From the NCBI RefSeq assembly GCF_014297275.1, contig NZ_JACOQK010000001.1, forward strand, positions 1,033,603 through 1,065,602: DNA of 32,000 nucleotides. Direction: 5' to 3'. The notes beneath the pieces were generated by a model. The model ran no database searches. It was not told where the DNA came from and saw nothing but the letters and a program-made list of their open reading frames with translations. This document shows positions 10,711 to 30,604 of this stretch, one piece after another; positions within the stretch are counted from its first letter, which is position 1; each line of letters starts with the position of its first letter. The position numbers were made by a program, and so were the translations under genes. This stretch comes from Clostridium facile. GTDB lineage: Bacteria > Bacillota > Clostridia > Oscillospirales > Ruminococcaceae.

Positions 10711-11293
10711 ATTGTTTTTTTACCTCCATTTTATATGTGATTGTATTTTATCGTACACTGAAAATCATACCTTTTCGTTCGACAAAAACAGGTACAGATT
10801 CAGCCCATTTTTGGGTTTTTTGGTTGGGAAATAGCAGATACTATACCCATTTTAAGTGTGATGGAAAAAGTATACCATACGAAACGAAAAAAAGAAAGCA
10901 ATTTTCCTATTAATTGGGATTTATGTCAAATTTTCGTCGAATATCAATAAAATCTATGTAAAATCTTCGGGTTAAACTTTGTGTAAAATGCTATATTCAT
11001 TGTTTTGCAATACCACTTACTTCCTCATAATAGAACAATATGAAAAAAATACGGCTAATATGAGCCTGTACCAAAACCCATAACAGCCGTATTTTATTGT
11101 GTGGCTTCTATAATATCCGACACTTTGTTAGCATAAATAAAAACCATTTAAAATAATTTTATTACAAGACATCACAATTTCTTACCGATTATAAGGCTGT
11201 TATGGAATGATACCAAAACAGCCTAATGTATAGAAATAGATAACCCCCTGGTATAGGAAAATAAACAGCTACAACAATGGGATATCATAGACT

Positions 11294-13645: not shown

Positions 13646-14237
13646 AAACTCCTCCAGGGAACAGCCCTTTTTTCTTATTACCAATGGATTATCTGTTTGA
13701 TGATTGTAGTACCGCATTGTTCGTACAGGTAAGTGGTAAAAAGATGAAAATAACGTATTTTTGTGATAGGGAAAGTATGCCACAGTAAAATAAACTTACT
13801 GATAAATCAATATTTGTTGGTGTGATATGTATATAAAAAATCCTACCTATTCTATAATTGTCAGGTTGTATTTGAAACTAGATATTATATTACATCCTCA
13901 TGTGCATCAGTAAAATACTACTTATAGATATAGAGTGCTTGGTTGGTATTTCAAAGAAAACCCTAGTCTATTTTTTACTTATCAAAAAATCCCCAATCAC
14001 TCCTATTTAATATATGCCAAAGTGTCTATACTTGTCCACTGAGCCACATCGTTCATCCCGTTTTGCCAAGCCATCCGGCTGATGTTGTTTGTCTCTACTA
14101 TTTTATTTATTATAACAAAATTCGCAATTTGGTTCAACCAAAAAACAGAAAATAAAAGTGGAGTTTTTTAATTATTTAAAAACAATAACTGCAAGAAAAT
14201 CAGATACTGCTAAACCCCAATGACGATTCCAGTAAAA

Positions 14238-14248
14238 TATGCTACAAT
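14238..14248 (+). promoter_or_regulatory. Extended -10 promoter (TATGcTACAAT) for the metallophosphoesterase gene
   Basis: A TRTGn-TACAAT motif lies about 30 nt upstream of the AAGGAGGAG RBS and ATG at 14279. Confidence 0.45.
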
Positions 14249-14278
14249 GACAGTATCACTACAAAAGGAGGAGATGAA

Positions 14279-16899: not shown

Positions 16900-17669
16900 A
16901 TTTCAATCCACGCTGCCCGTGTGGGCAGCGACGCATAGTAAAAACCTCCTATTAACTTGACTTTGTGTATTTCAATCCACGCTGCCCGTGTGGGCAGCGA
17001 CTTTGTCCCAACGGTTATGCCACTAGGGACACAAAATATTTCAATCCACGCTGCCCGTGTGGGCAGCGACGGTACACATGTTTAGACTGCAAACACGCAT
17101 TGCTATTTCAATCCACGCTGCCCGTGTGGGCAGCGACGGGTTTTATCTTTTTGACGATATTACTATTATATCATTTCAATCCACGCTGCCCGTGTGGGCA
17201 GCGACTTTAAACCTCATTGTATTAAAGATAATGTTAGGATTTCAATCCACGCTGCCCGTGTGGGCAGCGACGTTGGACGAATTGGAAAACAAAAAGGTTC
17301 AGTTGGATTTCAATCCACGCTGCCCGTGTGGGCAGCGACCTCTACGGTTTCCTGCCCGTCATAGTCCATACAATTTCAATCCACGCTGCCCGTGTGGGCA
17401 GCGACCAAAATCATCATGCCTCATGCTTGATATGCCATTATTTCAATCCACGCTGCCCGTGTGGGCAGCGACCTGCCGCTGGTTTTTTGCCATCCAGCAT
17501 GGAATATTTCAATCCACGCTGCCCGTGTGGGCAGCGACTTCTTGCCATGCAACAGTATAGCGGTACAAATATTTCAATCCACGCTGCCCGTGTGGGCAGC
17601 GACTGCTTTTCACTCCATATTATTTTATTCAATTCTATTTCAATCCACGCTGCCCGTGTGGGCAGCGAC
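16900..17669 (-). CRISPR. Type I-C CRISPR array: 12 identical 33-nt repeats and 11 spacers
   Basis: The repeat on the minus (transcribed) strand is GTCGCTGCCCACACGGGCAGCGTGGATTGAAAT, with the I-C signature GTCGC...stem-loop...ATTGAAAT. Repeat starts on the plus strand are 16900, 16969, 17038, 17105, 17173, 17239, 17307, 17373, 17440, 17506, 17571 and 17637. Spacer lengths from trailer to leader are 36, 36, 34, 35, 33, 35, 33, 34, 33, 32 and 33. Orientation follows from the cas genes and the leader on the 17670 side. Confidence 0.98.
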
Positions 17670-18138: not shown

Positions 18139-19170
18139 CTACTTCCACAAAAATACTGGGTATTCATCCAGCTCACCTCGGATATATCTGGCAAGCAGCA
18201 GGCTTTGGGCATAAGGGATTAGCCCCCATTCTATCTTTTCCTCCAAAAATGGATGCTTGATCACCTCTTTTTTCTTTTGCTGCCATGCCTTTATGATAGT
18301 ATTCCGACCAGAATCCGTCATCAACACAGCCCCATTTTCCTTTTGGATAAAATCAGTGGGCTTTACCATGTTCCGGTTCACCAATCCAATGACAAAACGG
18401 TCAACAAACGGGGCTCGCAGTTCTTCCATGAAATCCATTGCCAAGGAAGCCCGACCTGGCCGTTCGCAGTGGAGGAAACCTACGTAAGGGTCCAATCCGA
18501 CTGAGGATAGAGCGGAGGTACAATCATTGGCAAGAAGGGTATACAAAAAGGAAAGCATGGCATTCATATTGTCCAAGGGGGGACGGCGGTTCCGTTCACG
18601 AAAGAAAAAATCCTGCTTGTTCCGCAAAATCAACTGGTCGATCATCGAAAAGTACTGACTGGCAGCATTTCCCTCAATTCCCCTGATTTCGTCCAACGAG
18701 CTACTTTCCATTAACTGATTGATAGAACCCGCAAGGTTGGAACTGACCTTTTTCAATTCTTCTACATCTACCTGTAAGGGATGATCCCTGGTGGCACGCT
18801 CTAAAATCCATCTGCTGTTATGGAGTTTTCCCACAATCATATTCCTAGCGATCCTTACTGACTGGGTTTCGTCATCCGAAATCCGGTACTGCTGTTTGCG
18901 CAGCACCACATTGCCTTTCATTTCCCCGGCAACACTAGCTAAGAACCTGCCATGCTGGCTCATAAAACAGAGGGAAATATTGTGTTTGACACATGCTCCC
19001 ATCAAGGCGGGACTGGCACCGGTGTACCCAAATGTAACTATCCCCTCCAAGTTGTGCAGAGGAACTCTGGCAACCGTTTTCCCCTGTTCCAGTACCAGTA
19101 CGGTTTCCCCTTCCAACGCCAGATATCGCTCGGGGGAAACTACGTAAAGGGTGTTTAATAATTTTCTCAT
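18139..19170 (-). CDS. cas1: CRISPR-associated integrase Cas1 (I-C type)
   Basis: 343 aa. Motifs: LNTLYV..., GNAASQYF, RRPPLDNMNAMLSFLYTLL, DPYVGFLH. It overlaps cas4 by 4 nt. Confidence 0.95.
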   Translation of the reverse strand: MRKLLNTLYVVSPERYLALEGETVLVLEQGKTVARVPLHNLEGIVTFGYTGASPALMGACVKHNISLCFMSQHGRFLASVAGEMKGNVVLRKQQYRISDDETQSVRIARNMIVGKLHNSRWILERATRDHPLQVDVEELKKVSSNLAGSINQLMESSSLDEIRGIEGNAASQYFSMIDQLILRNKQDFFFRERNRRPPLDNMNAMLSFLYTLLANDCTSALSSVGLDPYVGFLHCERPGRASLAMDFMEELRAPFVDRFVIGLVNRNMVKPTDFIQKENGAVLMTDSGRNTIIKAWQQKKKEVIKHPFLEEKIEWGLIPYAQSLLLARYIRGELDEYPVFLWK

Positions 19171-19841
19171 GGCTCCTCCTCCCCGGTTTGCCTCCTGATA
19201 TAATCATGGACAGAAGGGCGTTTTAACAATTTTGGCAGGCAAATTTCCTTTAAGGAACAGGCGTTGCAGGCTTTTGTTCGTTTGACCATTGGCGTATGTC
19301 GCCGTTGAAACAAATCGTGCATCTGGGCGCATACATTCTCCAGTTTTTGACGAAACTCCTGGGTAATCTCCACCTTTTCCCGGTGCCGTGTGGCACCATA
19401 ATACAGATATCCATATGGGATATCGGTACACAGCATCTCTTCCAGGCAAACTGCTTGCGCCACAAGCTGGAGCCTGTCCGCATCGCTGATTTTGGGTTCC
19501 CCTTTTTTGTACTCCACCGGAACAACCCGGTAAAATCCTTCTTTTTGGAACAGGGAGATCCCTTCCTGCTGGGTGCAGCGGTGGAACTCCACTACATCGC
19601 AAATCCCGCTGATTCCTAATTTTGCGGAAAACACCCGCATCTCCCGGGAAATGAGCAGTTGTCCCCTGCTCTCCAAAGTTGGTCCCTCATGGGCTCTCTG
19701 GTGCAGAATGTTCCCCTCTATGGTTCGCAGGTTATCCGCCCACTGCTCTTCGATTTCAATCAACGCCCACTGCCGCTTGCAAAACACAAAGTGCTGTATC
19801 CCAGAGAGCATCAAGAAATCTTCCTCTTTATATTCCGTCAT
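19167..19841 (-). CDS. cas4: CRISPR-associated exonuclease Cas4 (RecB-like, Fe-S cluster)
   Basis: 224 aa. It has an N-terminal Cys (FVFCKRQW), the nuclease core DVVE...EYKKG, and the C-terminal cluster CNACSLKEIC. Confidence 0.9.
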   Translation of the reverse strand: MTEYKEEDFLMLSGIQHFVFCKRQWALIEIEEQWADNLRTIEGNILHQRAHEGPTLESRGQLLISREMRVFSAKLGISGICDVVEFHRCTQQEGISLFQKEGFYRVVPVEYKKGEPKISDADRLQLVAQAVCLEEMLCTDIPYGYLYYGATRHREKVEITQEFRQKLENVCAQMHDLFQRRHTPMVKRTKACNACSLKEICLPKLLKRPSVHDYIRRQTGEEEP

Positions 19842-20691
19842 ATTCTTCTACTGTTAACCCTTCCAGCGGGGTGAGGGTAATCTGGTAGTCCTCTATGCTT
19901 TTTGGGGTAAGAACCCCTTCTTTTTTGGCAACGCAAAGGCTATCGTGAACCTTTTTGGTGGAATACTGGCCAATTTTGCAGTTGTGTTCCCACCAGTAGA
20001 GCTTATGAATCTCCATACTGCCTTCCGGACGTGCGGAGGAACTATCGTTGACAAAAAGGGTGCGGATAGCTTCTTTGATTTTTTCCGCGTCCTCCTGGGT
20101 AAATCCGGTTTTTTCTGCAAGCTGGACGTTGATGCTCCCTTTTAAGAGGTATACACCAAAATCAACCCGGTGCTTATCCCCCATGGTGTCTGATGCTTTC
20201 CCTCCTTTGGTATCCTCACTGTTGACGCTTTTGGTGATTTTGATAGTGGTGATATTGATTGGATCCACGCTAAATGCTGGATGGAGGGAAACCGGCCCCC
20301 TTATTCCGAGGGAAAGTTCTTCCCCCTTAAAAGCGAATACTTGTCCAAAGCTGCGTACATCCATCCACTCTTGGCAAGCGGCTTGATAGGCTACTTGCGC
20401 ATTGGCTTTTTTCCCTTTTTTCAGTTCTGTGCCAAAGGCGGGGTTTTTATCCGCCCGCTCTTTCAGGCTGTCATAACCATCCACATTTTTGTCATCGGAC
20501 TGGACAAAGATGGATTCCCCCATATCCATCAGGCGGTTTCTGATTTTCCGTTTGATGCAGACATCCGAAATCTCCCCAAACCCTTCATCAGTGATTCTTG
20601 GCATATTTCCGTTGAGGGGATCGCCGTTGCAGTTTGCGTTATTTACTGTAATAATTGCCTCAAAATCAATTTTATTTTGTAATACACCCAT
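19828..20691 (-). CDS. cas7: Cascade backbone subunit Cas7 (Csd2, type I-C)
   Basis: 287 aa. NANCNGDPLNGNMPR is the Csd2/Cas7 N-terminal signature. The position after cas8c fits. Confidence 0.92.
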   Translation of the reverse strand: MGVLQNKIDFEAIITVNNANCNGDPLNGNMPRITDEGFGEISDVCIKRKIRNRLMDMGESIFVQSDDKNVDGYDSLKERADKNPAFGTELKKGKKANAQVAYQAACQEWMDVRSFGQVFAFKGEELSLGIRGPVSLHPAFSVDPINITTIKITKSVNSEDTKGGKASDTMGDKHRVDFGVYLLKGSINVQLAEKTGFTQEDAEKIKEAIRTLFVNDSSSARPEGSMEIHKLYWWEHNCKIGQYSTKKVHDSLCVAKKEGVLTPKSIEDYQITLTPLEGLTVEEYDGI

Positions 20692-20692
20692 T

Positions 20693-21127
20693 TTATTCTT
20701 CCTCCATCTTCTGTGATTTTTTTATTTGCCGTTCTTTGATAATTTGTATCCTTTGGCTGCAAAAACCAGATAAAAATGCCGCCCCCAAATTTCGTTTCTT
20801 TTTCAGTTCTTTCGTATCAATTCTACTGACCATTTCGTCTAATAAATCGCATAAATCGCAGAGTTTTATCCCCTTGGATTGCATAATGTAAACATTCACC
20901 TTATTGTAAAGTACTGTTAACGTGTCGTAAGGGCTCTGGCAAAACCGCGTAAGAAGCCTTCTCGCATTGGTAGGGCGAACTTCTTTATAAGATTCGTTGT
21001 CATCCGGCTTATTTTTTCCCCACAGCACCTGATTTTCAATAGCATCAGCAAGTGCCACAAATCTTCCGCAATTGTATTCAATATCATCAGTTTCTTTTAC
21101 ACAATTAAAAACACCATTTTCTCCCAT
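20693..21127 (-). CDS. cas11: Predicted internally translated small subunit Cas11c (144 aa, in frame within the cas8c 3' end)
   Basis: In-frame ATG at 21127 (MGENGVFNC...) is preceded by GGAGGA (21135-21140) with a 7-nt spacer. Type I-C systems are known to make Cas11 from an internal start in cas8c. The size and helical, basic C-terminus are consistent. Confidence 0.5.
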   Translation of the reverse strand: MGENGVFNCVKETDDIEYNCGRFVALADAIENQVLWGKNKPDDNESYKEVRPTNARRLLTRFCQSPYDTLTVLYNKVNVYIMQSKGIKLCDLCDLLDEMVSRIDTKELKKKRNLGAAFLSGFCSQRIQIIKERQIKKSQKMEEE

Positions 21128-22651
21128 AACAAATTCCTCCATTCTATAAATCAACGGATTGTCCTTATCGTAATCATATAAATAACGGTTATATAAGGCG
21201 CATGCCGCAAAAGCAACTTGTTCCCATAAGGACCCATAGCCATAGTTTTGTGGGAATTTCGCCTTGTTGACAGCAGCTTTTACAATATCCCGTGGAATTT
21301 TCGCCCCATCACAGATACAGGGCAGAATCCGCTGCACAGTATCTGCTAACAGCTTATTACTTCCCACTTCCAGATAGTTGCCCCTGCTCACCCCAAACGC
21401 CGCTTTTGCCAGATTCACTGGGGACGGCGCACCAAAATGGTATTCTTGTTTTTTTATCTCGTTGTAATAACGGATATTCCAGGCGCAGGTTTTGTGCCAT
21501 CGCTCTATGTTGTCAATCAGTTCGTTTCCTTGCAGTCCATTGTACTCTCGGTTGAAAACCACCGCCATCCTTCCGGTAGTAGCAGCATCCAACCCCAACA
21601 GCACCAGCTGGCTGTCCTTCCTGATTTCAGCGTGATAACCTGTAATCGCCATTTTAAACTGTTGGGCAAACTCCTGTTCAGTATTAATTTCCACACTCTG
21701 CTCCTCAAAGCAGAACTGGAATGTATCCGCCATGGGGTCGGGGAGTTCTTCCCCATCCACTCCCCACAGAACGAATACACGGTCACCAATTCTGGCAACT
21801 TGCTTCTGGTTCTGAATCAGCCATTTTAAGGCGTTATGGGCTTTTTGGGACGCCTCATAGGATATGGTATACGCTTGTTCCGCTGTTTCAAACCGTCCAC
21901 GGAAAGTAAAATTGGTGGTATCATTGGCAGAAATCAATTTTGCCTTATCACCGGAATTTCTGATTTTAGACGGATGGATGGTGCAGGCCCTTACATGATT
22001 TCCTGTGACATAACAGAGTTTTTTGCTGCCCTCCTGGCTCAAGTAGTAGTTTGTATATTGGTCTTGCAGTTTTCCATCCTGCCACAACGCGGGGACAGAA
22101 TCAATCCCAATCACCGAAAACCGTACAAAGGCATCGGATTGGTTGCCCACCGGCAGTTTTAAATTAGGCTGGTTTTCCCATTTCTTTGTCAACCTTCCGT
22201 TTTCATCCACCGAAAAAATACCCTGTTCCACCAAATCGTGAATCAATGTTTTCTGGTTCAGATACTGGTAAACCGCTTTGACCTTTGGGTTGCTGTACGA
22301 AGATTCACACCATGCTTGTAATTGTTCCATATACGCCTGATAGGCTTCGGCGTTATCCTCTTTGCAGAACCGGGGATAATCCCCCGCTATGTACTTTAGT
22401 TTATCGAATAAAGGATGGGGGCATGGTTTGGATGTCCGGTTGGCGGAATATTCAGTTACCGGTATCACCGTATCCGCTTGATCTTTTTCCACAGGGGTTG
22501 CAGAGATAAACTGCCCCTCCTTGCCCAGCTTGACATCCACATGCGCCTGTTGGGTGGAGAATCCCACCTTAAGCAGCCCTCTTTGGGTGAAATTAGCGGG
22601 GTCTTTTTCCAGCCTTTCATAGGTACGGTACAACGTCATCATGTAACTCAT
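20693..22651 (-). CDS. cas8c: Cascade large subunit Cas8c (Csd1, type I-C)
   Basis: 652 aa. Csd1-like N-terminus (VIPVTEYSANRTSKPCPHPLFDKLKYIAGDY). It sits between cas5 and cas7, with a 4-nt overlap with cas5. Confidence 0.92.
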   Translation of the reverse strand: MSYMMTLYRTYERLEKDPANFTQRGLLKVGFSTQQAHVDVKLGKEGQFISATPVEKDQADTVIPVTEYSANRTSKPCPHPLFDKLKYIAGDYPRFCKEDNAEAYQAYMEQLQAWCESSYSNPKVKAVYQYLNQKTLIHDLVEQGIFSVDENGRLTKKWENQPNLKLPVGNQSDAFVRFSVIGIDSVPALWQDGKLQDQYTNYYLSQEGSKKLCYVTGNHVRACTIHPSKIRNSGDKAKLISANDTTNFTFRGRFETAEQAYTISYEASQKAHNALKWLIQNQKQVARIGDRVFVLWGVDGEELPDPMADTFQFCFEEQSVEINTEQEFAQQFKMAITGYHAEIRKDSQLVLLGLDAATTGRMAVVFNREYNGLQGNELIDNIERWHKTCAWNIRYYNEIKKQEYHFGAPSPVNLAKAAFGVSRGNYLEVGSNKLLADTVQRILPCICDGAKIPRDIVKAAVNKAKFPQNYGYGSLWEQVAFAACALYNRYLYDYDKDNPLIYRMEEFVMGENGVFNCVKETDDIEYNCGRFVALADAIENQVLWGKNKPDDNESYKEVRPTNARRLLTRFCQSPYDTLTVLYNKVNVYIMQSKGIKLCDLCDLLDEMVSRIDTKELKKKRNLGAAFLSGFCSQRIQIIKERQIKKSQKMEEE

Positions 22652-23376
22652 TGGGCGCCACCCCCTTCCTGGTAACCCTCCAGAAGCCCAGGCTCCTGCA
22701 AACCGGAAAAGTTGGAAGAATCAAACCGTTTCGGTTTCATCTCCCTCACTGGAATCCGTTGGACACAATCCTCCTGTTTACAGTAGCGAATCACGCCCCG
22801 CTCCATTTTAGGATACCAGAACAACGCCTCCAATTGGTTGGTACCGTTCTGGTCAGGGTAAACAAACGAGTGGAACATCAGCCCAAAGTCCATCTGCTCC
22901 AAATCGCTGTAACAGCTCTGTTCCTCCCCTGTAACTGGTTCCACGTATGCCTGGCATTCCCGCGCCCCTAAAAAGACATCCCGCCTGCCTCCTTTTTCGA
23001 TGCAGCGTTTCGCAACCCAGTAGTGTTTATGCTCGTTCCAGTCCTGTTTTAAATCGGGACGATATAGGTTGAACTCAAAATGCGCCTTGACAATGTAGGA
23101 CACATTTGATAAGTACGTGTAATACGCCAAATCGTTGCCGCCGTAGTATTTGATGGGGCGAATGCCCTTCCGCTCGGTACGGATGGGGTTTAAAACCGTT
23201 GCTTCATCGATTATCCATAAAATAGACGGCTTCCAGTACACCGATGACACAATCCCTTTTAACGCCTCAGCAGTGGGAATCATCAAGGTGGATTTTTCCC
23301 CACCAATTTTGGTCATGGGGTCGGTGAATAAGGCGAATCTACCAGAAACCTTAAAAGTGACCTGATTTGGTTTCAT
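22648..23376 (-). CDS. cas5: Cas5c (Cas5d), Cascade subunit and pre-crRNA endoribonuclease of type I-C
   Basis: 242 aa. MKPNQVTFKVSGRFALFTDPMTK... is the Cas5d N-terminal signature. An AGGAGG RBS lies 8 nt upstream. It is the first gene of the tightly packed cas5-to-cas2 operon. Confidence 0.93.
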   Translation of the reverse strand: MKPNQVTFKVSGRFALFTDPMTKIGGEKSTLMIPTAEALKGIVSSVYWKPSILWIIDEATVLNPIRTERKGIRPIKYYGGNDLAYYTYLSNVSYIVKAHFEFNLYRPDLKQDWNEHKHYWVAKRCIEKGGRRDVFLGARECQAYVEPVTGEEQSCYSDLEQMDFGLMFHSFVYPDQNGTNQLEALFWYPKMERGVIRYCKQEDCVQRIPVREMKPKRFDSSNFSGLQEPGLLEGYQEGGGAQ

Positions 23377-23400
23377 TGCTGTTCCTCCTTTCTAACTTTT

Positions 23401-23429
23401 CTTATACTATTTTTCACTTATTTTGTAAA
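23401..23429 (-). promoter_or_regulatory. Sigma-A-type promoter of the cas5-cas8c-cas7-cas4-cas1-cas2 operon
   Basis: On the minus strand: TTTACA (23429-23424), 17 nt, TATAAG (23406-23401). This puts a start site about 20-25 nt upstream of the cas5 RBS. It is the only reasonable -35/-10 pair in the gap in this orientation. Confidence 0.6.
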
Positions 23430-23472
23430 GGGAAATTTTTCATAAAAAAACAGCTTTCTTCTTGTACATTTT

Positions 23473-23483
23473 TATGGTATACT
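23473..23483 (+). promoter_or_regulatory. Extended -10 promoter (TATGgTATACT) driving the repeat-like small RNA
   Basis: A TRTGn-TATACT motif on the plus strand ends 6 nt before the G of the GTCGC repeat-like element. There is no good -35, which is typical for extended -10 promoters. Confidence 0.55.
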
Positions 23484-23489
23484 AAAAGC

Positions 23490-23596
23490 GTCGCAATTTG
23501 CGTGGATTGAAAATCTTATACTATCTTTAACGAAAGAACTGCTTTGTAACAGGTGAGGACGCTATCCTTGTCTGTTGCAAAGCTTTTCTTTTTTCT
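23490..23596 (+). ncRNA. Solitary degenerate CRISPR repeat plus pseudo-spacer plus terminator: candidate crRNA-mimic regulatory RNA (CreR/CreA-like)
   Basis: 23490-23514 reads GTCGCAATTTGCGTGGATTGAAAAT. This is the array repeat with its upper stem replaced by AATTT and one extra A in the handle. The pseudo-spacer starts at 23515 (CTTATACTATCTTTAAC...). A hairpin at 23541-23583 and a T-run at 23584-23596 follow. Orientation is opposite to the cas genes and the array. Confidence 0.65.
23541..23596 (+). terminator. Intrinsic terminator (plus orientation) abutting the cas3 stop codon
   Basis: A 12-bp stem GCTTTGTAACAG / CTGTTGCAAAGC (one G-U pair) with inner AGGA/TCCT pairing, then TTTTCTTTTTTCT. 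In the minus orientation the hairpin is followed only by AGTTCTTTCGTT, a weak U-tract. Confidence 0.7.
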
Positions 23597-23597
23597 C

Positions 23598-25946
23598 TTA
23601 AAACAGCGCCAGATCATCTTTCAGGGTTACCCCCAGGCAAGCGTCATAATGGAGGGACCCCATCAGGTATGCCCCTGTCACCTGATTTTGGGTGATATCA
23701 TTCTGTAACGTCTGGAACTGGTATCGGTACAGATTGACCGAATATTTCCGCAATTGGGAAAGTAATCTTTTCTTTTCCTCCATAGGTGAAAACTCGTTAA
23801 GCTGCTCCAGTTTTTCTATGAGTTGTAACCCCTCCCCATAAGGGACAATCACTGGGATGGTATCGTTTCCAATCACCTCAAAGGGTTGCGCTGCCGATTG
23901 GAATTTTACTGTAGTAAATAATGGGCTTTTTCTGATTTTATTTTGTAGTAATTCATAAATGGATACAGATCCATTCAAAGGGTAGGAAAACTGTTTGGAA
24001 ATCCGCTCATCCTGATAATAAAGCTGAAAAAACTCCTTAATAGAGGATGGAGATAAACCGTCTGAGGTCATCCGCAGCACGCTATCCGCATGGTCGATTC
24101 CAATTGGATATTCCGGCATGTTATTGTAAGAGCCTTCCTGCAATTTTACCGCATAGCAATAACCCAGTTCCTGTTCCCCATTACGGTTGACCCTACCCGC
24201 TGTCTGGGCAACCGAATCCAGACGGGTTAAGCTGCGGACCGCTGCTTCAAAGCTGATATCCACCCCAGCTTCAATGAGCGAAGTGCTGACGCAGATTAAG
24301 TCCTCCCCATCTTTTAGCGCCTGCTTTAGTTCCTTCAACACCTTGCCTCTATGTGCCTGACACAAGCGGGTACTCAAATAAAACAGATTTATCCCTTCCA
24401 GTTCGGGAGATTGGCACAGCATTTCCCAAACAGCAGCTGCGGTATCCACCTTATTCACCACTGCCAATAGGCTTTTTACCTCGCGTTTTCTCTCCAAGAG
24501 GAACTGCTGAAATTGTTCCAAGTCATATTTCTTTGGCTTATAGACCACCTGTACTCGCTTGAGCTGCTCAAAATTGCGGCTGACATTCTTCACAATTTCA
24601 GCATCTTCCGATTCTTTTATCATGGGATGCCCCAGAAGATTCGTATAAGGCTGGGTAGCAGTACAAAGTACTAGGGTAGAATTCCCTACCTGGCGCAGAA
24701 AATTGGCTGCGCTTGTGAACAAATCCATACATTTGGCAGGAAGGGTTTGGATTTCATCAAAAATAATGGTGGCATTCATCAGATGGTGGAGACGGCGCAT
24801 GTCCTGAGTACCTCGATGGTAGAAGGTGTTTAAAAACTGCACCATAGTCGTAAAAATGATATCGCTCTCCCAACGTTCGGTAAGCAGTTTATAATCCTCC
24901 TGCTGGTTATCCTCCAACAGGTTGGAATGGTGCTCCAGCAAATCGCACTGGTAGCCCAGAGCTTTCCGAATTTGTTCAGCGTTTTGCTCGATGATTGAAG
25001 TATATGGAATGACATAGACAATCCGCTGTTTTTGATTTAGCCGGTTATGGTTCAGGGCAAACCGCATACTGGAAAGGGTTTTCCCTCCCCCTGTTGGAAC
25101 AGTAAGACGGTAGATACCCGTCCCTCTATTGGACGCAAGAAAACATTCATCCGAGATTGCTTGCCGAATCCGGTTTACCTGCTCTGTTTTGGGTTCCGCA
25201 GATGATTTCTGGCTGAGTTGGGACAGATAAACCTCAAACCTACCTTGGTATTCCTCCCATGCTGGGAATTGCTGTTCCCGTTCTATTACAGGGGAGATCC
25301 CCCTGTTTTCCTCAAAGCACATGCTGTCCATCCGGTCGGCGTCAATCAGTATGCTGTAGATGGTTTTGATCAGCAGGTGGTAACAGAACACCCCATCTTT
25401 CATTTTTGTAACCCCTTCGATAATAGGAACCAGTTCTTCTAACGCTTGGTGGAACAGTTTGGTAAGATCTTCTTGGATTTCCTGGGAAAACCGTTGGTAT
25501 GCCTGTTCTATCCTGTGTTGGTCTAGTTTTTCGAACCGCTCCAAAAGAGGGGATTGATTACAGACATCCACACAATCTTTTAATCCGCCATGGTGGTAGC
25601 AGCACGCCATGGCGATGATTTCCACGATGGCGCCACGCCGGCTTTTTCCCGGATAAAAGGTTTGGAAAAAATATTTTGCCCCATATACCCCATGGTCAAA
25701 ATCGGATTTCCGTTTCTGGGAAAGGTACTGCTTTGGGTTTTGCACTGCCCGCTGCCGTTCCCCTTCGATAAAATCCTGGAACTGCTGGTCGTATTTGCCC
25801 ATATCATGGAGCAAACCCGCCAGGCGCATGGTTTGAGAAAGGTTTAATTTTGCCCCGAATGATTCTGACAGACTGGCAACCCCTAAAATATGCTCCCGTA
25901 ACGGCTGCTGTTTTCCATCCTGTAGCCGGAACCTTGCCTGATACAT
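23598..25946 (-). CDS. cas3: Cas3 helicase-nuclease (N-terminal HD domain plus SF2 DEAH helicase)
   Basis: 782 aa. HD motifs (LAGLLHDMGKY, DHGVYGA), Walker A TVPTGGGKT, DEAH-box variant FDEIQ, and the helicase C-domain (TSLIEAGVDISF, AGRVNR). An AAGGAG RBS precedes the ATG. Confidence 0.95.
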   Translation of the reverse strand: MYQARFRLQDGKQQPLREHILGVASLSESFGAKLNLSQTMRLAGLLHDMGKYDQQFQDFIEGERQRAVQNPKQYLSQKRKSDFDHGVYGAKYFFQTFYPGKSRRGAIVEIIAMACCYHHGGLKDCVDVCNQSPLLERFEKLDQHRIEQAYQRFSQEIQEDLTKLFHQALEELVPIIEGVTKMKDGVFCYHLLIKTIYSILIDADRMDSMCFEENRGISPVIEREQQFPAWEEYQGRFEVYLSQLSQKSSAEPKTEQVNRIRQAISDECFLASNRGTGIYRLTVPTGGGKTLSSMRFALNHNRLNQKQRIVYVIPYTSIIEQNAEQIRKALGYQCDLLEHHSNLLEDNQQEDYKLLTERWESDIIFTTMVQFLNTFYHRGTQDMRRLHHLMNATIIFDEIQTLPAKCMDLFTSAANFLRQVGNSTLVLCTATQPYTNLLGHPMIKESEDAEIVKNVSRNFEQLKRVQVVYKPKKYDLEQFQQFLLERKREVKSLLAVVNKVDTAAAVWEMLCQSPELEGINLFYLSTRLCQAHRGKVLKELKQALKDGEDLICVSTSLIEAGVDISFEAAVRSLTRLDSVAQTAGRVNRNGEQELGYCYAVKLQEGSYNNMPEYPIGIDHADSVLRMTSDGLSPSSIKEFFQLYYQDERISKQFSYPLNGSVSIYELLQNKIRKSPLFTTVKFQSAAQPFEVIGNDTIPVIVPYGEGLQLIEKLEQLNEFSPMEEKKRLLSQLRKYSVNLYRYQFQTLQNDITQNQVTGAYLMGSLHYDACLGVTLKDDLALF

Positions 25947-26319: not shown

Positions 26320-26718
26320 ATGCGAAAAGCAATACGAGAATTTTTGATTTATGACGCCTTTGTTGCGGTTACTATGATTGCAAGATATTTTGTAGTGAAT
26401 GATATTGAGTGGGGATATTTTTGGCTTTGCGTGGTCTATTTTCCAACTGTTTTTTTGTTTCAACCAGTTTTTGGGTTACTACTGGGATACCGGGCAATAA
26501 AAAAATATAATATCCCCTGCTTGCGGTTTTTAGCGTTAAGCCTGCTGTTCTTTCTGATCAACGGTTTTACATTTTCTATTCTATCCATAGGAAGTGCGTA
26601 CACATATGGATTTATAGATACTTTTTGGAACACCGGTTTGATATATGCGTGCATATTCATTGCGTTTTACTGGTTGTCCTATTTTATTACAAAATTTTAT
26701 TTGAAGTTTTATTTTTAA
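26320..26718 (+). CDS. Hypothetical integral membrane protein (132 aa, about 4 TM helices)
   Basis: GGAGGG RBS, and TATAAT-like GTTATAAT upstream. The sequence is strongly hydrophobic and aromatic-rich. No family recognised. Confidence 0.6.
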   Translation: MRKAIREFLIYDAFVAVTMIARYFVVNDIEWGYFWLCVVYFPTVFLFQPVFGLLLGYRAIKKYNIPCLRFLALSLLFFLINGFTFSILSIGSAYTYGFIDTFWNTGLIYACIFIAFYWLSYFITKFYLKFYF

Positions 26719-27086: not shown

Positions 27087-29999
27087 TTATTGAAATGGCT
27101 GTTCTATCTGCTGTTTTAAAAAGAGCAGGTTACGCAAACAAGAAAGGGTTTGTGGATCGGATTCCCCCAGCGTATCCCTGAGGATGAAAAAGGAGCGTTC
27201 CAGATAATCCAATGCTTTACAAAGCTTCCTTTGCATAAAGTAGGCATGGCCAATTTCATTGTAATCCACAGCGATTTCCGGATGCAGTTCTCCAAGGATA
27301 TGTTGATGAATCCGTAAGGCTTTTGGGTAAAAGCCAATCGCTTTATCATACAAACATTGGATTTCATATAAATCCCCAATTAAGATATATTCCTCTGCTA
27401 CCTCCATAGATTCTTCCCCAAAAGCCTTCTGGCTGGCACGTAAAGAGTTTTGGTAAGCTTCCAGCGCATTTGAATATTCCTTTTGGAGGCTGTAAAGATG
27501 ACCAATATTATGGAAAAGGGTTGTGATTGCCTGAATATTTTCTTTTGTCTGCCCTTGTTCGATTTGCAGGCATTTTTGATAACACTCCAACGCTTTGGCA
27601 TAATTTTTCTGGCAACTATATAAATAGGCGATTGCGTTATACACCATGGACACGTTAGTATCCTGTTCTCCATACAGGTTCTGGGTTACTTTTAGCGCTT
27701 TCTGATAATATTCCAACGCCTTTGGATATCGTTTCCAATCCTGGTACATTTGAGCAATATTGTTATAGTAGGTGACAATATTGGGATGGTTTTCCCCCAA
27801 CAATTCCAGCTCTATTTCCAGTGCTGTTTGAAAATACCTCACCGCATTTGGATAATCTCCCATACCATAATAGGCTCCACCAATATTGTTATAGATCGTT
27901 GCGGTGGATTTATGAAATCCTTCTGTAAGATTTTGGTCGATTTCCAACGCCTTTTGGTAATACTCCAATGCTGTAGTATATTCTCCTTTTCGATGGTGTA
28001 CCATTCCAATATTCAGATAATTGACAATAATATTGGGATGCTGTTCCCCAAAAACCCTGCGGTTGATTGCTAGCCCTTTTTGATAATATTCTAATGCTAG
28101 TCCTAATTTTTGTTGCCTGCTATAGACACCTCCAATGTTATGGTAACAGGCTGCGGTTTCTGGATGTTCTTCCCCCAGTATCTTCTGGTTGATTTGCAAC
28201 GCTTTCGTATAATATTCTAAAGCGGTTTCATTATCCCCAAAGATAACATAAATCGAACCCATATTATTGTATACCGATGCTGCTGTATGCCCCTTGGAAT
28301 ATTTTTCGTCCAAAGCAATCGCCTTCTGATAATATTCCAATGCTGCGGCATAATCCCCTTTTTCAAAATAAAGCAATCCAATATTTCCATAAATGGAATA
28401 CAGCCGCAGCTCTTCTTTTATTTTTTTCTGATGAATATTCAGTGCTTTATTGTAATATTCCAGTGCAACATCATACTGGCACAGGTATTGGTATACCATA
28501 CCAATATTTTCATACTCTGTAGCAACCTGCAAGCACTCTTCTCCTAAGGTGTTCCGGACAATTTGCAAGGATTTTTGGTAATACGCCAAAGCGTCCATAT
28601 ATTTGCCACAATCGCAGTATACTAGCCCCATACTATTGTAAACAGATGCAGTATACACATCCTCTTTTCCAACTGTTTGGAGAAAAATGTTAAGCGCTTT
28701 CTGATCATATTCCAACGCTTTTGGAAAGTTGGCTCCTTGGCGAAGCAATTCAGCGTACTTGAGGAAAAAATTAGCATATGCCACGTCATCTCCTTCAATC
28801 CGTTTCGCTACAGCGTCTCCAAACTGGGAAATCTCCTGTCTTTGCTGGCAGGTATCGCAGTAGGAACCTAGATAATCGAAAATTGCTTCCAGATAACACC
28901 AGCAGTCCTTGATGTTGGGGGTTAGGTCATTCTCTAGAATATCTGCCATCACAGGATGGAGGGAATAGTGGGTGTTTTCGTTCCGTACCCATCCACGGGC
29001 TACCAACTGTTTCAGTTGGGGTAGTTTGGTTGATTCCATCCCACACCATTTTAGGAACTGCTTCCCGTCCACACCAGTGTAAGGAACCAACAATAAATTC
29101 CTTAACAGATAAATTTGATCCTCCGACAGTTTCTCCCTGCTAATATCAAAAATAGCGCGTAAATGTTGGTACATACTTTTTTGGGATTGCTTTCCGTCCT
29201 TATTCAAGGGGATCACGGTATCCTGATGATCTTTGAGTTTTTCCCTTAGTTCCTCCAGCATTTCCGCCAGGGGGATTTCTTCCTCCCGTATCTGTTTTGC
29301 CAGAAGCTCCACCGTCATGGTGTGTCGATCCACCAGCTGAATCAATTCATCCAGTTGGGCAAGTTCATCCTCTGTAAAATCCGTGCTTCCGTAAGAATGA
29401 AAAAACACCTCCCTAGCCTGTTCCGATTCCAATGGCATCACCTTAACCTGCTGTTTCCCATACTGACTCCAATCATTCCGGGTAGTAAACAACAGATACC
29501 ATCCCATTGATTCCAGATCTTCCATCTCATCGGATTCTGTTTCATTGAAATTATCCACGATGAGTAAAACCCTTTGCTGGGCACACAATTGTTTTATCAC
29601 GGCCTTTTTTTGCAAATAATACTGTTCTAATTCTTCCGCTTTCGCTTTCGCTGGAATAGAAAAACCTCCCAAAGTTATCCCTAGAACAACATCCCGCAAA
29701 CTGGAAGCGTAATTTGCCCATACTACACTACCGTTCCACCGGGTGGCATATTGTTTGGCGAGCTCACTTTTCCCGATGCCGCCTATCCCCCAAAGAAATA
29801 CCGTCCTGCCTTCCTGGAATTTTTGTTCCAGTGTTTCCAACTCCTGTTCCCTGCCAACAAACCCTTCTTTCAGCGGGATGGCTGAGCAGAGGATACTGTA
29901 TTGTTTTTCCCCGTTGGGATGAAGATGGATATTGTATTCCGAAAGGTAGGTTGGCCCCTGGTTTTTCATCTCCTCAATCCGGATTCCGTCCTGTCCCAT
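27087..29999 (-). CDS. STAND NTPase (NB-ARC/AP-ATPase-like P-loop) with a C-terminal array of about 13 TPR repeats (970 aa)
   Basis: A short N-terminal module of about 45 aa is followed by FVGREQELETL, Walker A GIGGIGKSELA, Walker B LLIVDNF and LLFTTRN. Then come 13 copies of a 42-aa TPR unit with a recurring ALEYYQKAL core (about 27120-28760). An AGGAGG RBS lies 5 nt before the ATG and overlaps the stop of the upstream gene. Confidence 0.88.
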   Translation of the reverse strand: MGQDGIRIEEMKNQGPTYLSEYNIHLHPNGEKQYSILCSAIPLKEGFVGREQELETLEQKFQEGRTVFLWGIGGIGKSELAKQYATRWNGSVVWANYASSLRDVVLGITLGGFSIPAKAKAEELEQYYLQKKAVIKQLCAQQRVLLIVDNFNETESDEMEDLESMGWYLLFTTRNDWSQYGKQQVKVMPLESEQAREVFFHSYGSTDFTEDELAQLDELIQLVDRHTMTVELLAKQIREEEIPLAEMLEELREKLKDHQDTVIPLNKDGKQSQKSMYQHLRAIFDISREKLSEDQIYLLRNLLLVPYTGVDGKQFLKWCGMESTKLPQLKQLVARGWVRNENTHYSLHPVMADILENDLTPNIKDCWCYLEAIFDYLGSYCDTCQQRQEISQFGDAVAKRIEGDDVAYANFFLKYAELLRQGANFPKALEYDQKALNIFLQTVGKEDVYTASVYNSMGLVYCDCGKYMDALAYYQKSLQIVRNTLGEECLQVATEYENIGMVYQYLCQYDVALEYYNKALNIHQKKIKEELRLYSIYGNIGLLYFEKGDYAAALEYYQKAIALDEKYSKGHTAASVYNNMGSIYVIFGDNETALEYYTKALQINQKILGEEHPETAACYHNIGGVYSRQQKLGLALEYYQKGLAINRRVFGEQHPNIIVNYLNIGMVHHRKGEYTTALEYYQKALEIDQNLTEGFHKSTATIYNNIGGAYYGMGDYPNAVRYFQTALEIELELLGENHPNIVTYYNNIAQMYQDWKRYPKALEYYQKALKVTQNLYGEQDTNVSMVYNAIAYLYSCQKNYAKALECYQKCLQIEQGQTKENIQAITTLFHNIGHLYSLQKEYSNALEAYQNSLRASQKAFGEESMEVAEEYILIGDLYEIQCLYDKAIGFYPKALRIHQHILGELHPEIAVDYNEIGHAYFMQRKLCKALDYLERSFFILRDTLGESDPQTLSCLRNLLFLKQQIEQPFQ

Positions 30000-30008
30000 A
30001 TAAACCTC

Positions 30009-30341
30009 CTATGATAGGCAAGAAGAAACAATTCCAATTAAATTTTTGATATTCTCTACTAATGTAGGAATTTTATCTGTAATAGCAACGGCGCACCCTA
30101 AACCTTCCACACATTTTTTGAGGATTTCCCATCTTGGCTTGGGCTTCATCAGTTCCGTATGAACAGTATCCACTGTTTCCACAATTGTTTTGGCCTCTTT
30201 CTCCGGAACGGCGGAAAGTTCCTTTTTAATGTTCTGAATAATCTTTTCCAATTCCTCGATTTTCATACTGTCCAAATGAACATAGATATCCCCTTCCGCT
30301 AAATAGGTCGGACCTTTATTTTCCATTTTGTTAATATACAT
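30009..30341 (-). CDS. Small protein (110 aa) co-transcribed with the STAND NTPase and sharing its N-terminal motif
   Basis: The start is moved to the ATG at 30341 (MYINKMENKGPTYLAEGDIYVH...) with AAGGGGGAG 6 nt upstream. The track extension to 30404 contains the promoter. The stop lies 9 nt before the NTPase ATG. The remainder is predicted helical, and no family is recognised. Confidence 0.7.
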   Translation of the reverse strand: MYINKMENKGPTYLAEGDIYVHLDSMKIEELEKIIQNIKKELSAVPEKEAKTIVETVDTVHTELMKPKPRWEILKKCVEGLGCAVAITDKIPTLVENIKNLIGIVSSCLS

Positions 30342-30372
30342 TCTAGCTCCCCCTTGTCCTGATTTTATCCAT

Positions 30373-30401
30373 ATTATACAACATGAATGGTTATAATACA
30401 A
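30373..30401 (-). promoter_or_regulatory. Sigma-A-type promoter of the small-protein/STAND operon
   Basis: On the minus strand: TTGTAT (30401-30396), 17 nt, TATAAT (30378-30373). This lies about 30 nt upstream of the RBS. Confidence 0.55.
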
Positions 30402-30604
30402 CAACTTTGTCTTATTTTTCCAACTTCTATCCCGAATAGTTGCTATAAATTTCTAATTGCATTTTGCTCTATGGTTTTTTGATAGATATTTTGACCTGTT
30501 CTAAATAAGGATACTACTTTTGGAAACTGCCGGATATAATAAAAATAGCATCCCAAAAAAGGATGCTATTTTTATGCTATATTGTCAGAGACTGTTTTTA
30601 AAAA

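Follow-up and report, generated by a model that had tools for sequence, protein, structure and literature searches.

Why should two adjacent genes, one for a protein of 110 amino acids (aa) and one for an NTPase of 970 aa, encode products that begin with the same short sequence? The question is raised by a gene pair in a 32,000-nt stretch of the Clostridium facile genome (NCBI RefSeq assembly GCF_014297275.1, contig NZ_JACOQK010000001.1, positions 1,033,603 to 1,065,602 of the forward strand), which is referred to below as the window. The larger protein is a STAND (signal transduction ATPases with numerous domains) NTPase with C-terminal tetratricopeptide repeats (TPRs). We suggest, as a moderately probable interpretation, that the pair is a two-gene immune module of the NOD-like receptor (NLR) type, in which a sensor and a separate effector are coupled by a homotypic, probably amyloid-like motif. 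The gene arrangement, the sharing of the motif, the recurrence of the architecture with another class of motif, and the link to domains of defense type are observed here; the disorder of the heads and the folds of both proteins are predicted by models.

The gene pair and its shared head

Both open reading frames (ORFs) lie where a preliminary description, made from the letters of the window, had placed them (Table 1), and the 110-aa product agrees with the NCBI annotation (WP_069988982.1, Clostridium facile). Between the TAG stop of the small gene (30009-30011) and the ATG of the NTPase gene (29997-29999) lie 9 nt, and the ribosome-binding site of the second gene lies over the stop of the first, both as described. 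This gap implies cotranscription and makes translational coupling probable. The position of the GGGGGAG site favors the ATG at 30341 over the TTG at 30404 as the start of the small gene. The promoter that had been proposed for the pair is present as a sequence, with a perfect −10 element, but its −35 element agrees with the consensus at only three of six positions. The site is missing from the list of a consensus promoter scan, which returned 11 sites against 12.5 expected and thus no excess, and we regard it as a plausible, putative promoter.

In a BLASTP comparison of the two proteins (E 2e-7), the alignment runs over residues 3-27 of the small protein and 8-32 of the NTPase, with 12 of 25 positions identical and 20 of 25 positive; the 11 identities in 21 residues reported previously were reproduced. 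The best ungapped BLOSUM62 score of the two heads is 67, against 29.8 ± 4.2 (maximum, 47) in 300 shuffles, or about 9 standard deviations above them. This motif, N.GPTYL.E..I..H, defines what we call the GPTYL class (head string, ATGNNNAAYNNNGGNCCNACNTAYYTNNNNGAR). The 12 identical residues are encoded by the same codon in seven cases (one being Met) and by synonymous codons in five, and the nucleotide identity is 46/75 (61%), so the similarity does not stem from a recent DNA duplication. The preliminary description had reached this conclusion, although its argument that most third positions differ was overstated. When the window and three strain flanks were translated in six frames, the motif was found twice only, with no third copy. 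In the AlphaFold2 models, both heads are predicted to be disordered: the predicted local distance difference test (pLDDT) value stays under 50 in residues 1-20 of the small protein and 1-38 of the NTPase.

The pair is conserved within the species. The small protein is identical in 10 strains, and its exact sequence is found in 59 blocks of the assembly collection, followed by a 970-aa gene in 10 of the 10 places listed. The NTPase is intact in 10 strains and shows 1-10 residue changes, none of which falls within the head; the differences are mostly synonymous at the nucleotide level (for example, 30 nt versus 5 aa in strain contig L001). Residue 892 (27324-27326) is Pro in the window and Gln in ten other strains, and because of this private Pro the exact 970-aa sequence is missing from the assembly index. 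The matched stretch is short (25 residues), and one might take the similarity for an accident, or for what is left of a decaying duplication, with no function. This explanation is scarcely credible given the E value and the shuffling score, the low nucleotide identity with synonymous differences at conserved residues, the invariance of the head across strains, and the recurrence of the same arrangement, with another motif, in all 17 related loci described below.

The two ORFs also share a reading frame (29997-30011: TAG, GAG GTT TAT, ATG), so that read-through of the stop would fuse both proteins. This is probably a coincidence, because related loci such as L013 are out of frame.

The NTPase as a proposed NLR-type sensor

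The larger protein had been described as a P-loop, NB-ARC-like NTPase with about 13 TPRs, and this assignment held. Its strongest Pfam matches are to TPR_12 (E 4e-106) and TPR_10 (E 2e-78), and the 13 repeats comprise 12 found by a regular expression and one degenerate repeat at residue 428. There is an NB-ARC signal, and weaker matches to AAA_16, NACHT, and nSTAND cover residues 45-160; the protein itself falls below the Pfam cutoffs for AAA_16 and NACHT, and precomputed Pfam matches to NB-ARC exist for its homologues. The AlphaFold2 model, which covers residues 1-420 and was built on 35 homologues, reaches 10-residue block means of 85-97 in pLDDT for most of the stretch 51-360 and drops to 54-76 in places. 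Foldseek matched this model to CED-4, Apaf-1, plant NLR resistosomes, the bacterial STAND-TPR structure 6mfv, and Avs3/Avs4 (E down to 3e-11, and about 1e-10 to 1e-11 for CED-4, Apaf-1, and the plant proteins), with a template modeling (TM) score of 0.65 against closed Apaf-1, and the sequence matched Roq1 with E 0.003. Judged by its Walker motifs and its modeled subdomain architecture, the protein is a member of the NB-ARC (AP-ATPase) clade.

Neither the domain scan nor the model placed an enzymatic domain ahead of residue 45, in agreement with the preliminary description, and only the disordered head of about 40 aa precedes the NTPase module. The homologues share 25-39% identity with the NTPase, stem from gut Clostridia (Acutalibacteraceae, Lachnospiraceae, and metagenome-assembled genomes [MAGs] of Eubacterium), and carry at the position of the head a protein kinase, a TIR domain, or nothing. 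Since a kinase or TIR domain can stand there, the head occupies the effector slot of a modular NLR. Membership of the Avs families, which the preliminary description might be taken to imply, was not borne out: the PADLOC scan of the NTPase matched no Avs model and returned only a generic TPR model and a weak match to mad8.

The STAND-plus-TPR class also includes transcription regulators, and the NTPase has weak TPR-level matches to the TPR_MalT and AfsR models. The pair could thus be a signal transducer of the MalT, AfsR, or GutR type, outside defense, with the small protein as a cofactor. We consider this improbable. The NTPase has no DNA-binding or other output domain, its NCBIfam matches all lie far under the cutoffs and within the TPR region only, and its homologues bear TIR or kinase heads. 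Moreover, relatives of the partner protein are encoded beside bSEFIR, AbiH, and DUF4062 proteins, and the locus itself borders CRISPR-Cas.

The small protein and the four-helix family

Behind its head, the 110-aa protein is predicted to form a compact bundle of four helices (residues 25-44, 47-64, 71-87, and 92-109; AlphaFold2 with 34 sequences), with block-mean pLDDT values of 87-97 from residue 31. The speculation that the C-terminal half is membrane active found no direct support: the bundle looks soluble, and its highest Kyte-Doolittle mean over 19 residues is 1.2. No significant match was found in Pfam or NCBIfam (best Pfam match, K-box with E 0.036). Foldseek, which linked the NTPase to CED-4, Apaf-1, and NLRs, retrieved for the four-helix model nothing from the PDB at E ≤ 0.001 and generic helical bundles only (best E, 0.25).

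The domain nevertheless belongs to a family. Residues 25-107 match positions 181-259, the C-terminal 80 or so, of the PADLOC profile PDC-M14B (E 1.9e-11). A word-indexed homology search with the small protein returned only itself; with phmmer, run exhaustively against 1.84 billion representatives, 34 relatives were retrieved, each by way of the helical domain, and a profile search enlarged the family to at least 223 clusters at 90% identity. Its members are unnamed or "hypothetical," lack Pfam domains, and are typically 110-120 aa long. In nearly all of them a motif of about 21 aa, GGQVNIAxDNATINATQNNG, directly precedes the four-helix domain, and it is with this GGQVNIA...QNN motif that the head of the window protein lines up. 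The composition of the GGQ motif is N 22.5%, G 13%, A 12%, I 8%, Q 8%, T 7%, and V 7%. Some members bear additional N-terminal domains: DUF4062, the N-domain of PDC-M14B, or domains that by eye resemble winged helix-turn-helix (wHTH), subtilisin, or phospholipase D (PLD) domains. No match to the family or to the window protein was obtained by tblastn in 50,697 phage genomes, and a scan of IMG/VR with the family profile gave no confirmed relative.

A small gene directly upstream of a TPR protein, together with a match of the NTPase to RNPP_C (31 bits, E 2.3e-7), might suggest an RNPP-like (Rap/NprR/PlcR/AimR-type) TPR receptor with an adjacent pro-peptide gene. This is very improbable. The RNPP_C match lies within a generic TPR array that matches about 20 other TPR models, and RNPP proteins have no counterpart of the complete NB-ARC ATPase present in the NTPase. 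A signal peptide is missing from the small protein, which is confidently modeled as a four-helix bundle. In addition, peptide signaling does not explain why the motif is present in the receptor itself.

Recurrence of the arrangement and covariation of the motif

A genome scan with a seven-sequence profile of the family yielded 17 loci, and one further locus was obtained by exact look-up. The hosts of the scan loci include Lachnospiraceae, Lachnospira, Eubacterium, Clostridium fimetarium, and Petralouisia muris. Downstream sequence could be read in 17 loci, and in every one of them the gene that follows on the same strand, typically after about 10 nt, carries a matching motif. It is N terminal in 14 loci and internal (residues ~90-120) in three, and the proteins that bear it are of several architectures (Table 1). 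The NB-ARC-TPR protein of locus L025 is collinear with the window NTPase (E 1e-31) and has the GGQ motif at the equivalent place, before FVGRE, where the window NTPase has its own head. These results support the proposal that the shared head is the coupling element of a two-gene module of defense type. Since the motif pairs with pentapeptide-repeat and sensor-less partners as well as with TPR proteins, it is not a ligand of the TPR array. Because the motif can be internal and its partners can lack TPRs, we also set aside the ideas that the head is an RNPP quorum peptide, part of a MalT/AfsR-type regulator, a peptide ligand of the TPRs, or an N-terminal degron.

A survey of gene neighborhoods and of head covariation had been proposed as a check on the pair, and its outcome agrees with a coupling role. 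Aligned with its own NTPase, the head of the window small protein scores 67; with 13 noncognate partners it does not exceed 29, which is also the upper limit for GGQ-class motifs scored against the window NTPase. A profile hidden Markov model (HMM) of the GGQ motif gave negative scores on both window proteins. These scores indicate that both partners have moved together to a separate motif class. Judged by this profile, no divergent copy of the GGQ motif is detectable in the window heads. Within the GGQ class, the motifs cross-match broadly among themselves; the cognate pairs nevertheless reach a score of 493, compared with 420 ± 22 for permuted pairs, a value attained in 0.0005 of 20,000 permutations when kinship is ignored.

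Proposed mechanism and its alternatives

In the NLR-type module that we propose, the TPR array of the 970-aa protein would recognize a ligand, and the ligand would drive oligomerization of the NB-ARC module, as the family leads one to expect, so that several NTPase heads are brought together. The clustered heads may then take up a cooperative, beta-rich, amyloid-like fold that recruits and templates the head of identical type on the small protein. The 110-aa protein, with the same head and a compact four-helix bundle, would be the output module: its four-helix domain would be clustered or refolded and its activity thereby unleashed, and the likely outcome would be growth arrest or death of the infected cell. 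A function in defense, templating driven by oligomerization, the amyloid character of the motif, and an activity of the four-helix domain are what we infer here. The defense context consists of the type I-C CRISPR-Cas locus beside the pair, the fusion of the motif to bSEFIR/TIR or its occurrence in loci with DUF4062 and AbiH, and the presence of the helical module in PDC-M14B. The amyloid step is less certain than the coupling, because the motif is N terminal, the output domain is not of the Bell type, the hosts are unicellular Firmicutes, and the motif of the window is charged and contains proline.

Several points weigh against the proposed module. The four-helix bundle has no N-terminal hydrophobic helix like that of Bell, no significant structural neighbor, only moderate hydrophobicity, and no effector activity that could be named, and the small protein could equally be a regulator. 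The position of the motif, N terminal to the effector, is the reverse of that in all described effectors of the Bell/HeLo type. Among the residues of the window motif are K, E, D, P, and L; it is not N/Q/G-rich, and its amyloid propensity, read from its sequence, appears less obvious than that of the GGQ class; it does have alternating hydrophobic stretches (TYL and IYVHL). In the true PDC-M14 system, the B protein bears the motif and its partner, a 170-aa zinc-ribbon A protein, does not, so the motif can work without an NLR. Finally, neither the word-indexed nor the exhaustive search with the small protein revealed a relative with the GPTYL motif outside C. facile, and the class switch consequently rests on one lineage.

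Several of these points also favor another explanation, in which the module is the same but the head is a finite, nonamyloid docking peptide and the small protein is a stoichiometric adaptor, or a negative regulator or decoy that would mask the NTPase head until activation. The peptide could add a beta-strand to the oligomer (beta-augmentation), or the two heads could bind a third partner in common. All of the evidence for coupling fits this explanation equally well, the charged, proline-containing window motif is unlike typical amyloid signaling motifs, and the bundle shows no effector signature. However, in relatives the motif is followed by bSEFIR/TIR effectors or membrane segments, which argues that the helical domain is an output and not an inhibitor, and the motif works with TPR, pentapeptide-repeat, and sensor-less partners alike. 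The composition and length of the GGQ motif are those of known amyloid signaling sequences (10.1101/2020.01.06.895854). We regard a docking peptide or regulator as the main, but less likely, alternative to amyloid-like coupling.

Taking the related loci together with the window, we tentatively propose, as a possibility that we would not yet call probable, that gut Clostridia (Lachnospiraceae, Eubacterium, C. fimetarium, Petralouisia, and C. facile) contain an undescribed prion-like signaling network. In this network a beta-arch motif of about 21 aa would stand N terminal to the output domain, and the window pair would form an orthogonal channel. If so, the network joins NB-ARC-TPR and NACHT-pentapeptide sensors to the four-helix effector, to bSEFIR/TIR proteins, and to membrane proteins, and the joint switch of the window pair to a motif that is not Q/N-rich insulates it from the GGQ channel. 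Amyloid-type immune signaling would then reach unicellular Firmicutes, with a mirror-image topology and an effector unrelated to Bell/HeLo.

Comparison with known systems

Signaling in which a motif is templated from an NLR onto an effector is known from fungi, from bacterial Bell/NLR pairs, and from the Bab/Agp system of Escherichia coli. In the fungal HET-S/NWD2 system and other HeLo/NLR pairs, the N-terminal motif of the NLR templates the same motif on an adjacent, separate cell-death effector. The window pair is similar in that the motif is N terminal on the NLR and present on an adjacent, separately encoded protein. It differs from the fungal system, which is eukaryotic and has a HeLo pore former with a C-terminal, two-repeat prion domain, and there is no sequence relation between them.

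In bacteria, the genes of Bell proteins and NLRs that share bacterial amyloid signaling sequences (BASS) are adjacent and collinear, with gaps no longer than 10 bp in 57% of the pairs, and BASS1-10 are shared motifs of about 25 aa that are rich in N/Q/G/V/I, poor in K/P/L, and also found on TIR and other effectors (10.1101/2020.01.06.895854). That survey found its pairs mostly in Actinobacteria and Cyanobacteria; the others came from Archaea, Bacteroidetes, and Chloroflexi, none from Firmicutes, and the species were almost always multicellular (10.1101/2020.01.06.895854). The window pair resembles these systems in its collinear adjacent genes with a gap within 10 bp, in combining a small helical protein with an NLR (NB-ARC/TPR or, in relatives, NACHT), and in a common motif of about 20-25 aa, which stands in the small protein and at the extreme N terminus of the NLR. 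As in BASS systems, the motif is also found on TIR-type effectors, and the GGQ motif of the relatives, rich in N/Q/G/V/I and poor in K/P/L, has the composition and length of BASS. In contrast, the motif is N terminal to the effector domain across the four-helix family and C terminal in BASS systems, the effector is a four-helix bundle without a Bell-like N-terminal hydrophobic helix and unrelated to Bell in sequence or by Pfam, unicellular gut Clostridia serve as hosts, and the window motif is not N/Q/G-rich.

The Bab/Agp system (BASS11) of E. coli has an amyloid motif of about 20 aa that is common to a TPR-containing sensor and a 109-aa helical effector and is needed for abortive infection (10.1101/2024.11.07.622273). 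The likeness to the window pair is close: a helical effector of about 110 aa and a TPR-containing sensor of about 1,000 aa are encoded side by side in a defense-island context, and they share a motif of about 20 aa that is disordered in the monomer. However, the window sensor is of the NB-ARC-TPR type, and the motif of Bab lies at the C terminus of the Babybell domain, whose helix 1 lines the pore. Amyloid formation and phage defense have been shown for Bab/Agp, whereas the window pair is known from sequence and models.

PDC-M14, from which the profile match of the small protein derives, is itself a computational candidate. The GGQ motif lies directly ahead of the C-terminal module of PDC-M14B, the part that the small protein matches. 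A true member of the PDC-M14B family (P0095; family length, ~260-275 aa) matches profile positions 1-259 (E 7e-86), whereas the window protein matches only positions 181-259 and lacks the N-terminal domain of about 160 aa. The NLR that accompanies the window protein is absent from PDC-M14. Among the ORFs of ≥100 aa between cas3 and the LRR_5/SLH gene (the small gene, the NTPase gene, and a 132-aa ORF, with the LRR/SLH protein outside the scan), PADLOC found no match to PDC-M14A; the real PDC-M14A protein of L029, the 170-aa zinc-ribbon protein, matches with E 3e-53.

Avs proteins are likewise STAND ATPases with a C-terminal sensor of the TPR type and effector logic at the N terminus; unlike them, the window NTPase has no fused effector domain, in addition to matching no Avs model. 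Pfam includes families of effector-associated domains (EADs) and Death-like domains (bDLD). STAND systems built on such domains also have an element common to the NTPase and a separately encoded partner. In the window, this element is a disordered motif of about 25 aa and not a folded helical domain of about 90 aa, and the NTPase lacks the helical domain of the small protein, for which no Pfam family reaches significance. The preliminary description had proposed homotypic recruitment through a shared adaptor; the sharing stands, but what is shared is a disordered motif and not a folded adaptor domain. In EAD systems, the module common to the STAND NTPase and the separate effector mediates recruitment (Kaur et al. 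2020, PMC7159879).

The concept of such coupling is thus known. What appears to be new is the family of effectors, along with the motif classes, topology, and host range. A full-text literature search found no paper with PDC-M14 or with motif strings such as GGQVNIA, searches on BASS11/12/13 and on amyloid signaling with Firmicutes returned no description of the four-helix family, and a 2026 survey of STAND proteins (PMC13581612) mentions neither amyloid motifs nor Lachnospiraceae. What the present system would add is an effector fold family, now an unnamed module of a PADLOC candidate, together with motif classes, a reversed order of motif and domain, and the abundant Clostridia of human and animal guts as hosts. 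The reversed order limits the models of how templating is transmitted to the effector, and the coordinated switch of motif would be a natural experiment on the specificity between NLR and effector. A four-helix profile combined with a check for the motif in the neighboring gene would flag at least 223 "hypothetical" clusters as candidate components of defense modules.

Variants in the related loci

Several related loci show the motif in other settings. The three proteins of the form [wHTH-like]-GGQ motif-[bSEFIR/TIR] are encoded at L012:387-1982, L020:2391-3278, and L035:6574-8781, the last with AbiH added, and each lies directly downstream of a motif-plus-four-helix gene, with no NLR called nearby. 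L035 contains DUF4062, two family members, the motif-bSEFIR-AbiH protein, and AbiH. The motif thus seems to link several kinds of defense module. It is also fused to multipass membrane domains in L018:9656-10522, L020:4041-4886, and L026:7340-8401, and similar membrane proteins without the motif are found downstream of the NLR in L021 (10101-10514).

In a MAG (L028:6950-7330), the motif-plus-four-helix gene is split by a frameshift and the downstream motif-NB-ARC gene is intact; an additional 74-aa ORF at L028:10079-10303 also bears the motif. In L013-L015 (Lachnospira/Eubacterium; about 9690-14255), the pair adjoins a region that, judged by eye only, resembles phage lysis and tail genes, including an amidase-like protein of 481 aa, small membrane proteins, and tail-fiber-like proteins, which suggests that the pair is carried at the end of a prophage.

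Two loci of NTPase homologues are of note for their upstream sequence. In L036:2377-2700, the NB-ARC/TPR homologue P0076 begins ...ISENASGVQAVDGIGTVNVNL, and an uncalled frame just upstream ends ...ITGENAKGIQAEKIDTVNM at its stop codon. This frame differs from that of P0076 and has no start codon that would give an ORF of ≥40 aa, and the motif that it shares with P0076 is C terminal, as is canonical for Bell/NLR pairs; the frame may represent an effector gene that has decayed or was miscalled. In L037:2-148, on a short contig, a truncated gene upstream of the NB-ARC homologue P0087 (head, IVNNSDWNQYGDINVGGTVNHYYG) ends ...NGMITLGKTAIGIATKNPVLALEAVKDLAK, which loosely resembles the last helices of the four-helix family.

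Features of the locus and its surroundings

The coordinates of the features in the window and the architectures of the motif-bearing partners in the related loci are collected in Table 1.

Table 1. Features of the gene pair in the window and motif-bearing neighbors in related loci
Feature	Position or locus	Strand	Basis
Small partner gene, 110 aa; disordered head and four-helix bundle	30009..30341	-	ORF list, AlphaFold2
Small-protein head motif, residues 3-27, INKMENKGPTYLAEGDIYVHLDSMK	30261..30335	-	BLASTP against NTPase head
Four-helix domain, residues 25-109; C-terminal module of PDC-M14B family	30015..30269	-	PADLOC, AlphaFold2
NB-ARC + TPR STAND NTPase gene, 970 aa	27087..29999	-	ORF list, domain and fold matches
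NTPase head motif, residues 8-32, IEEMKNQGPTYLSEYNIHLHPNGEK	29904..29978	-	BLASTP against small-protein head
NB-ARC module, about residues 45-400; predicted nucleotide-binding, helical, and winged-helix subdomains	28800..29867	-	AlphaFold2, Foldseek
Walker A, GIGGIGKS, residues 71-78	29766..29789	-	G74, G76, and K77 invariant in 35-sequence alignment
Walker B, LLIVDN, residues 145-150	29550..29567	-	L145 and D149 invariant in 35-sequence alignment
TPR array, about residues 403-965, 13 repeats of 42 aa	27105..28793	-	TPR_12/TPR_10, 42-aa spacing of ALEYYQKAL
Promoter-like site: TTGTAT 30396-30401, 17-nt spacer, TATAAT 30373-30378	30373..30401	-	Read from sequence
Ribosome-binding site of small gene, GGGGGAG, 5 nt ahead of ATG	30347..30353	-	Read from sequence
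Ribosome-binding site of NTPase gene, AGGAGG, over TAG stop of small gene	30005..30010	-	Read from sequence
N-terminal motif, NB-ARC + TPR	L017, L018, L021, L025, L028		
N-terminal motif, NACHT/NB-ARC + pentapeptide repeats	L011, L013-L015, L019, L023, L024		
N-terminal motif, unclassified proteins	L016, L022		
Internal motif, [wHTH-like]-motif-[bSEFIR/TIR]	L012, L020		
Internal motif, [wHTH-like]-motif-[membrane]	L026		

The pair is flanked on one side by a variable gene for an LRR_5/SLH surface protein, and a bidirectional hairpin at 30539-30575 marks the end of the gene upstream of the pair. On the other side lie a conserved 132-aa membrane ORF and the type I-C CRISPR-Cas locus, whose proximity had been pointed out in the preliminary description. 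The 132-aa ORF (26320-26718, plus strand) is convergent with the NTPase gene, has about four hydrophobic segments, and is called in 10 of the 10 strain places listed. It has no match in Pfam or PADLOC. A kinship with the membrane proteins of the related loci was considered and rejected, as the similarity is not significant (E 0.077).

The cas genes are in the order cas2-cas1-cas4-cas7-cas8c-cas5-cas3 (18139-25946, minus strand), and the adjoining CRISPR array (16900-17669) has 12 identical repeats of 33 nt, ATTTCAATCCACGCTGCCCGTGTGGGCAGCGAC. In three of 10 strain contigs (L002, L004, and L009), cas3 (23598-25946 in the window) is exchanged for a 120-aa ORF, and the NTPase pair and the other cas genes are kept.

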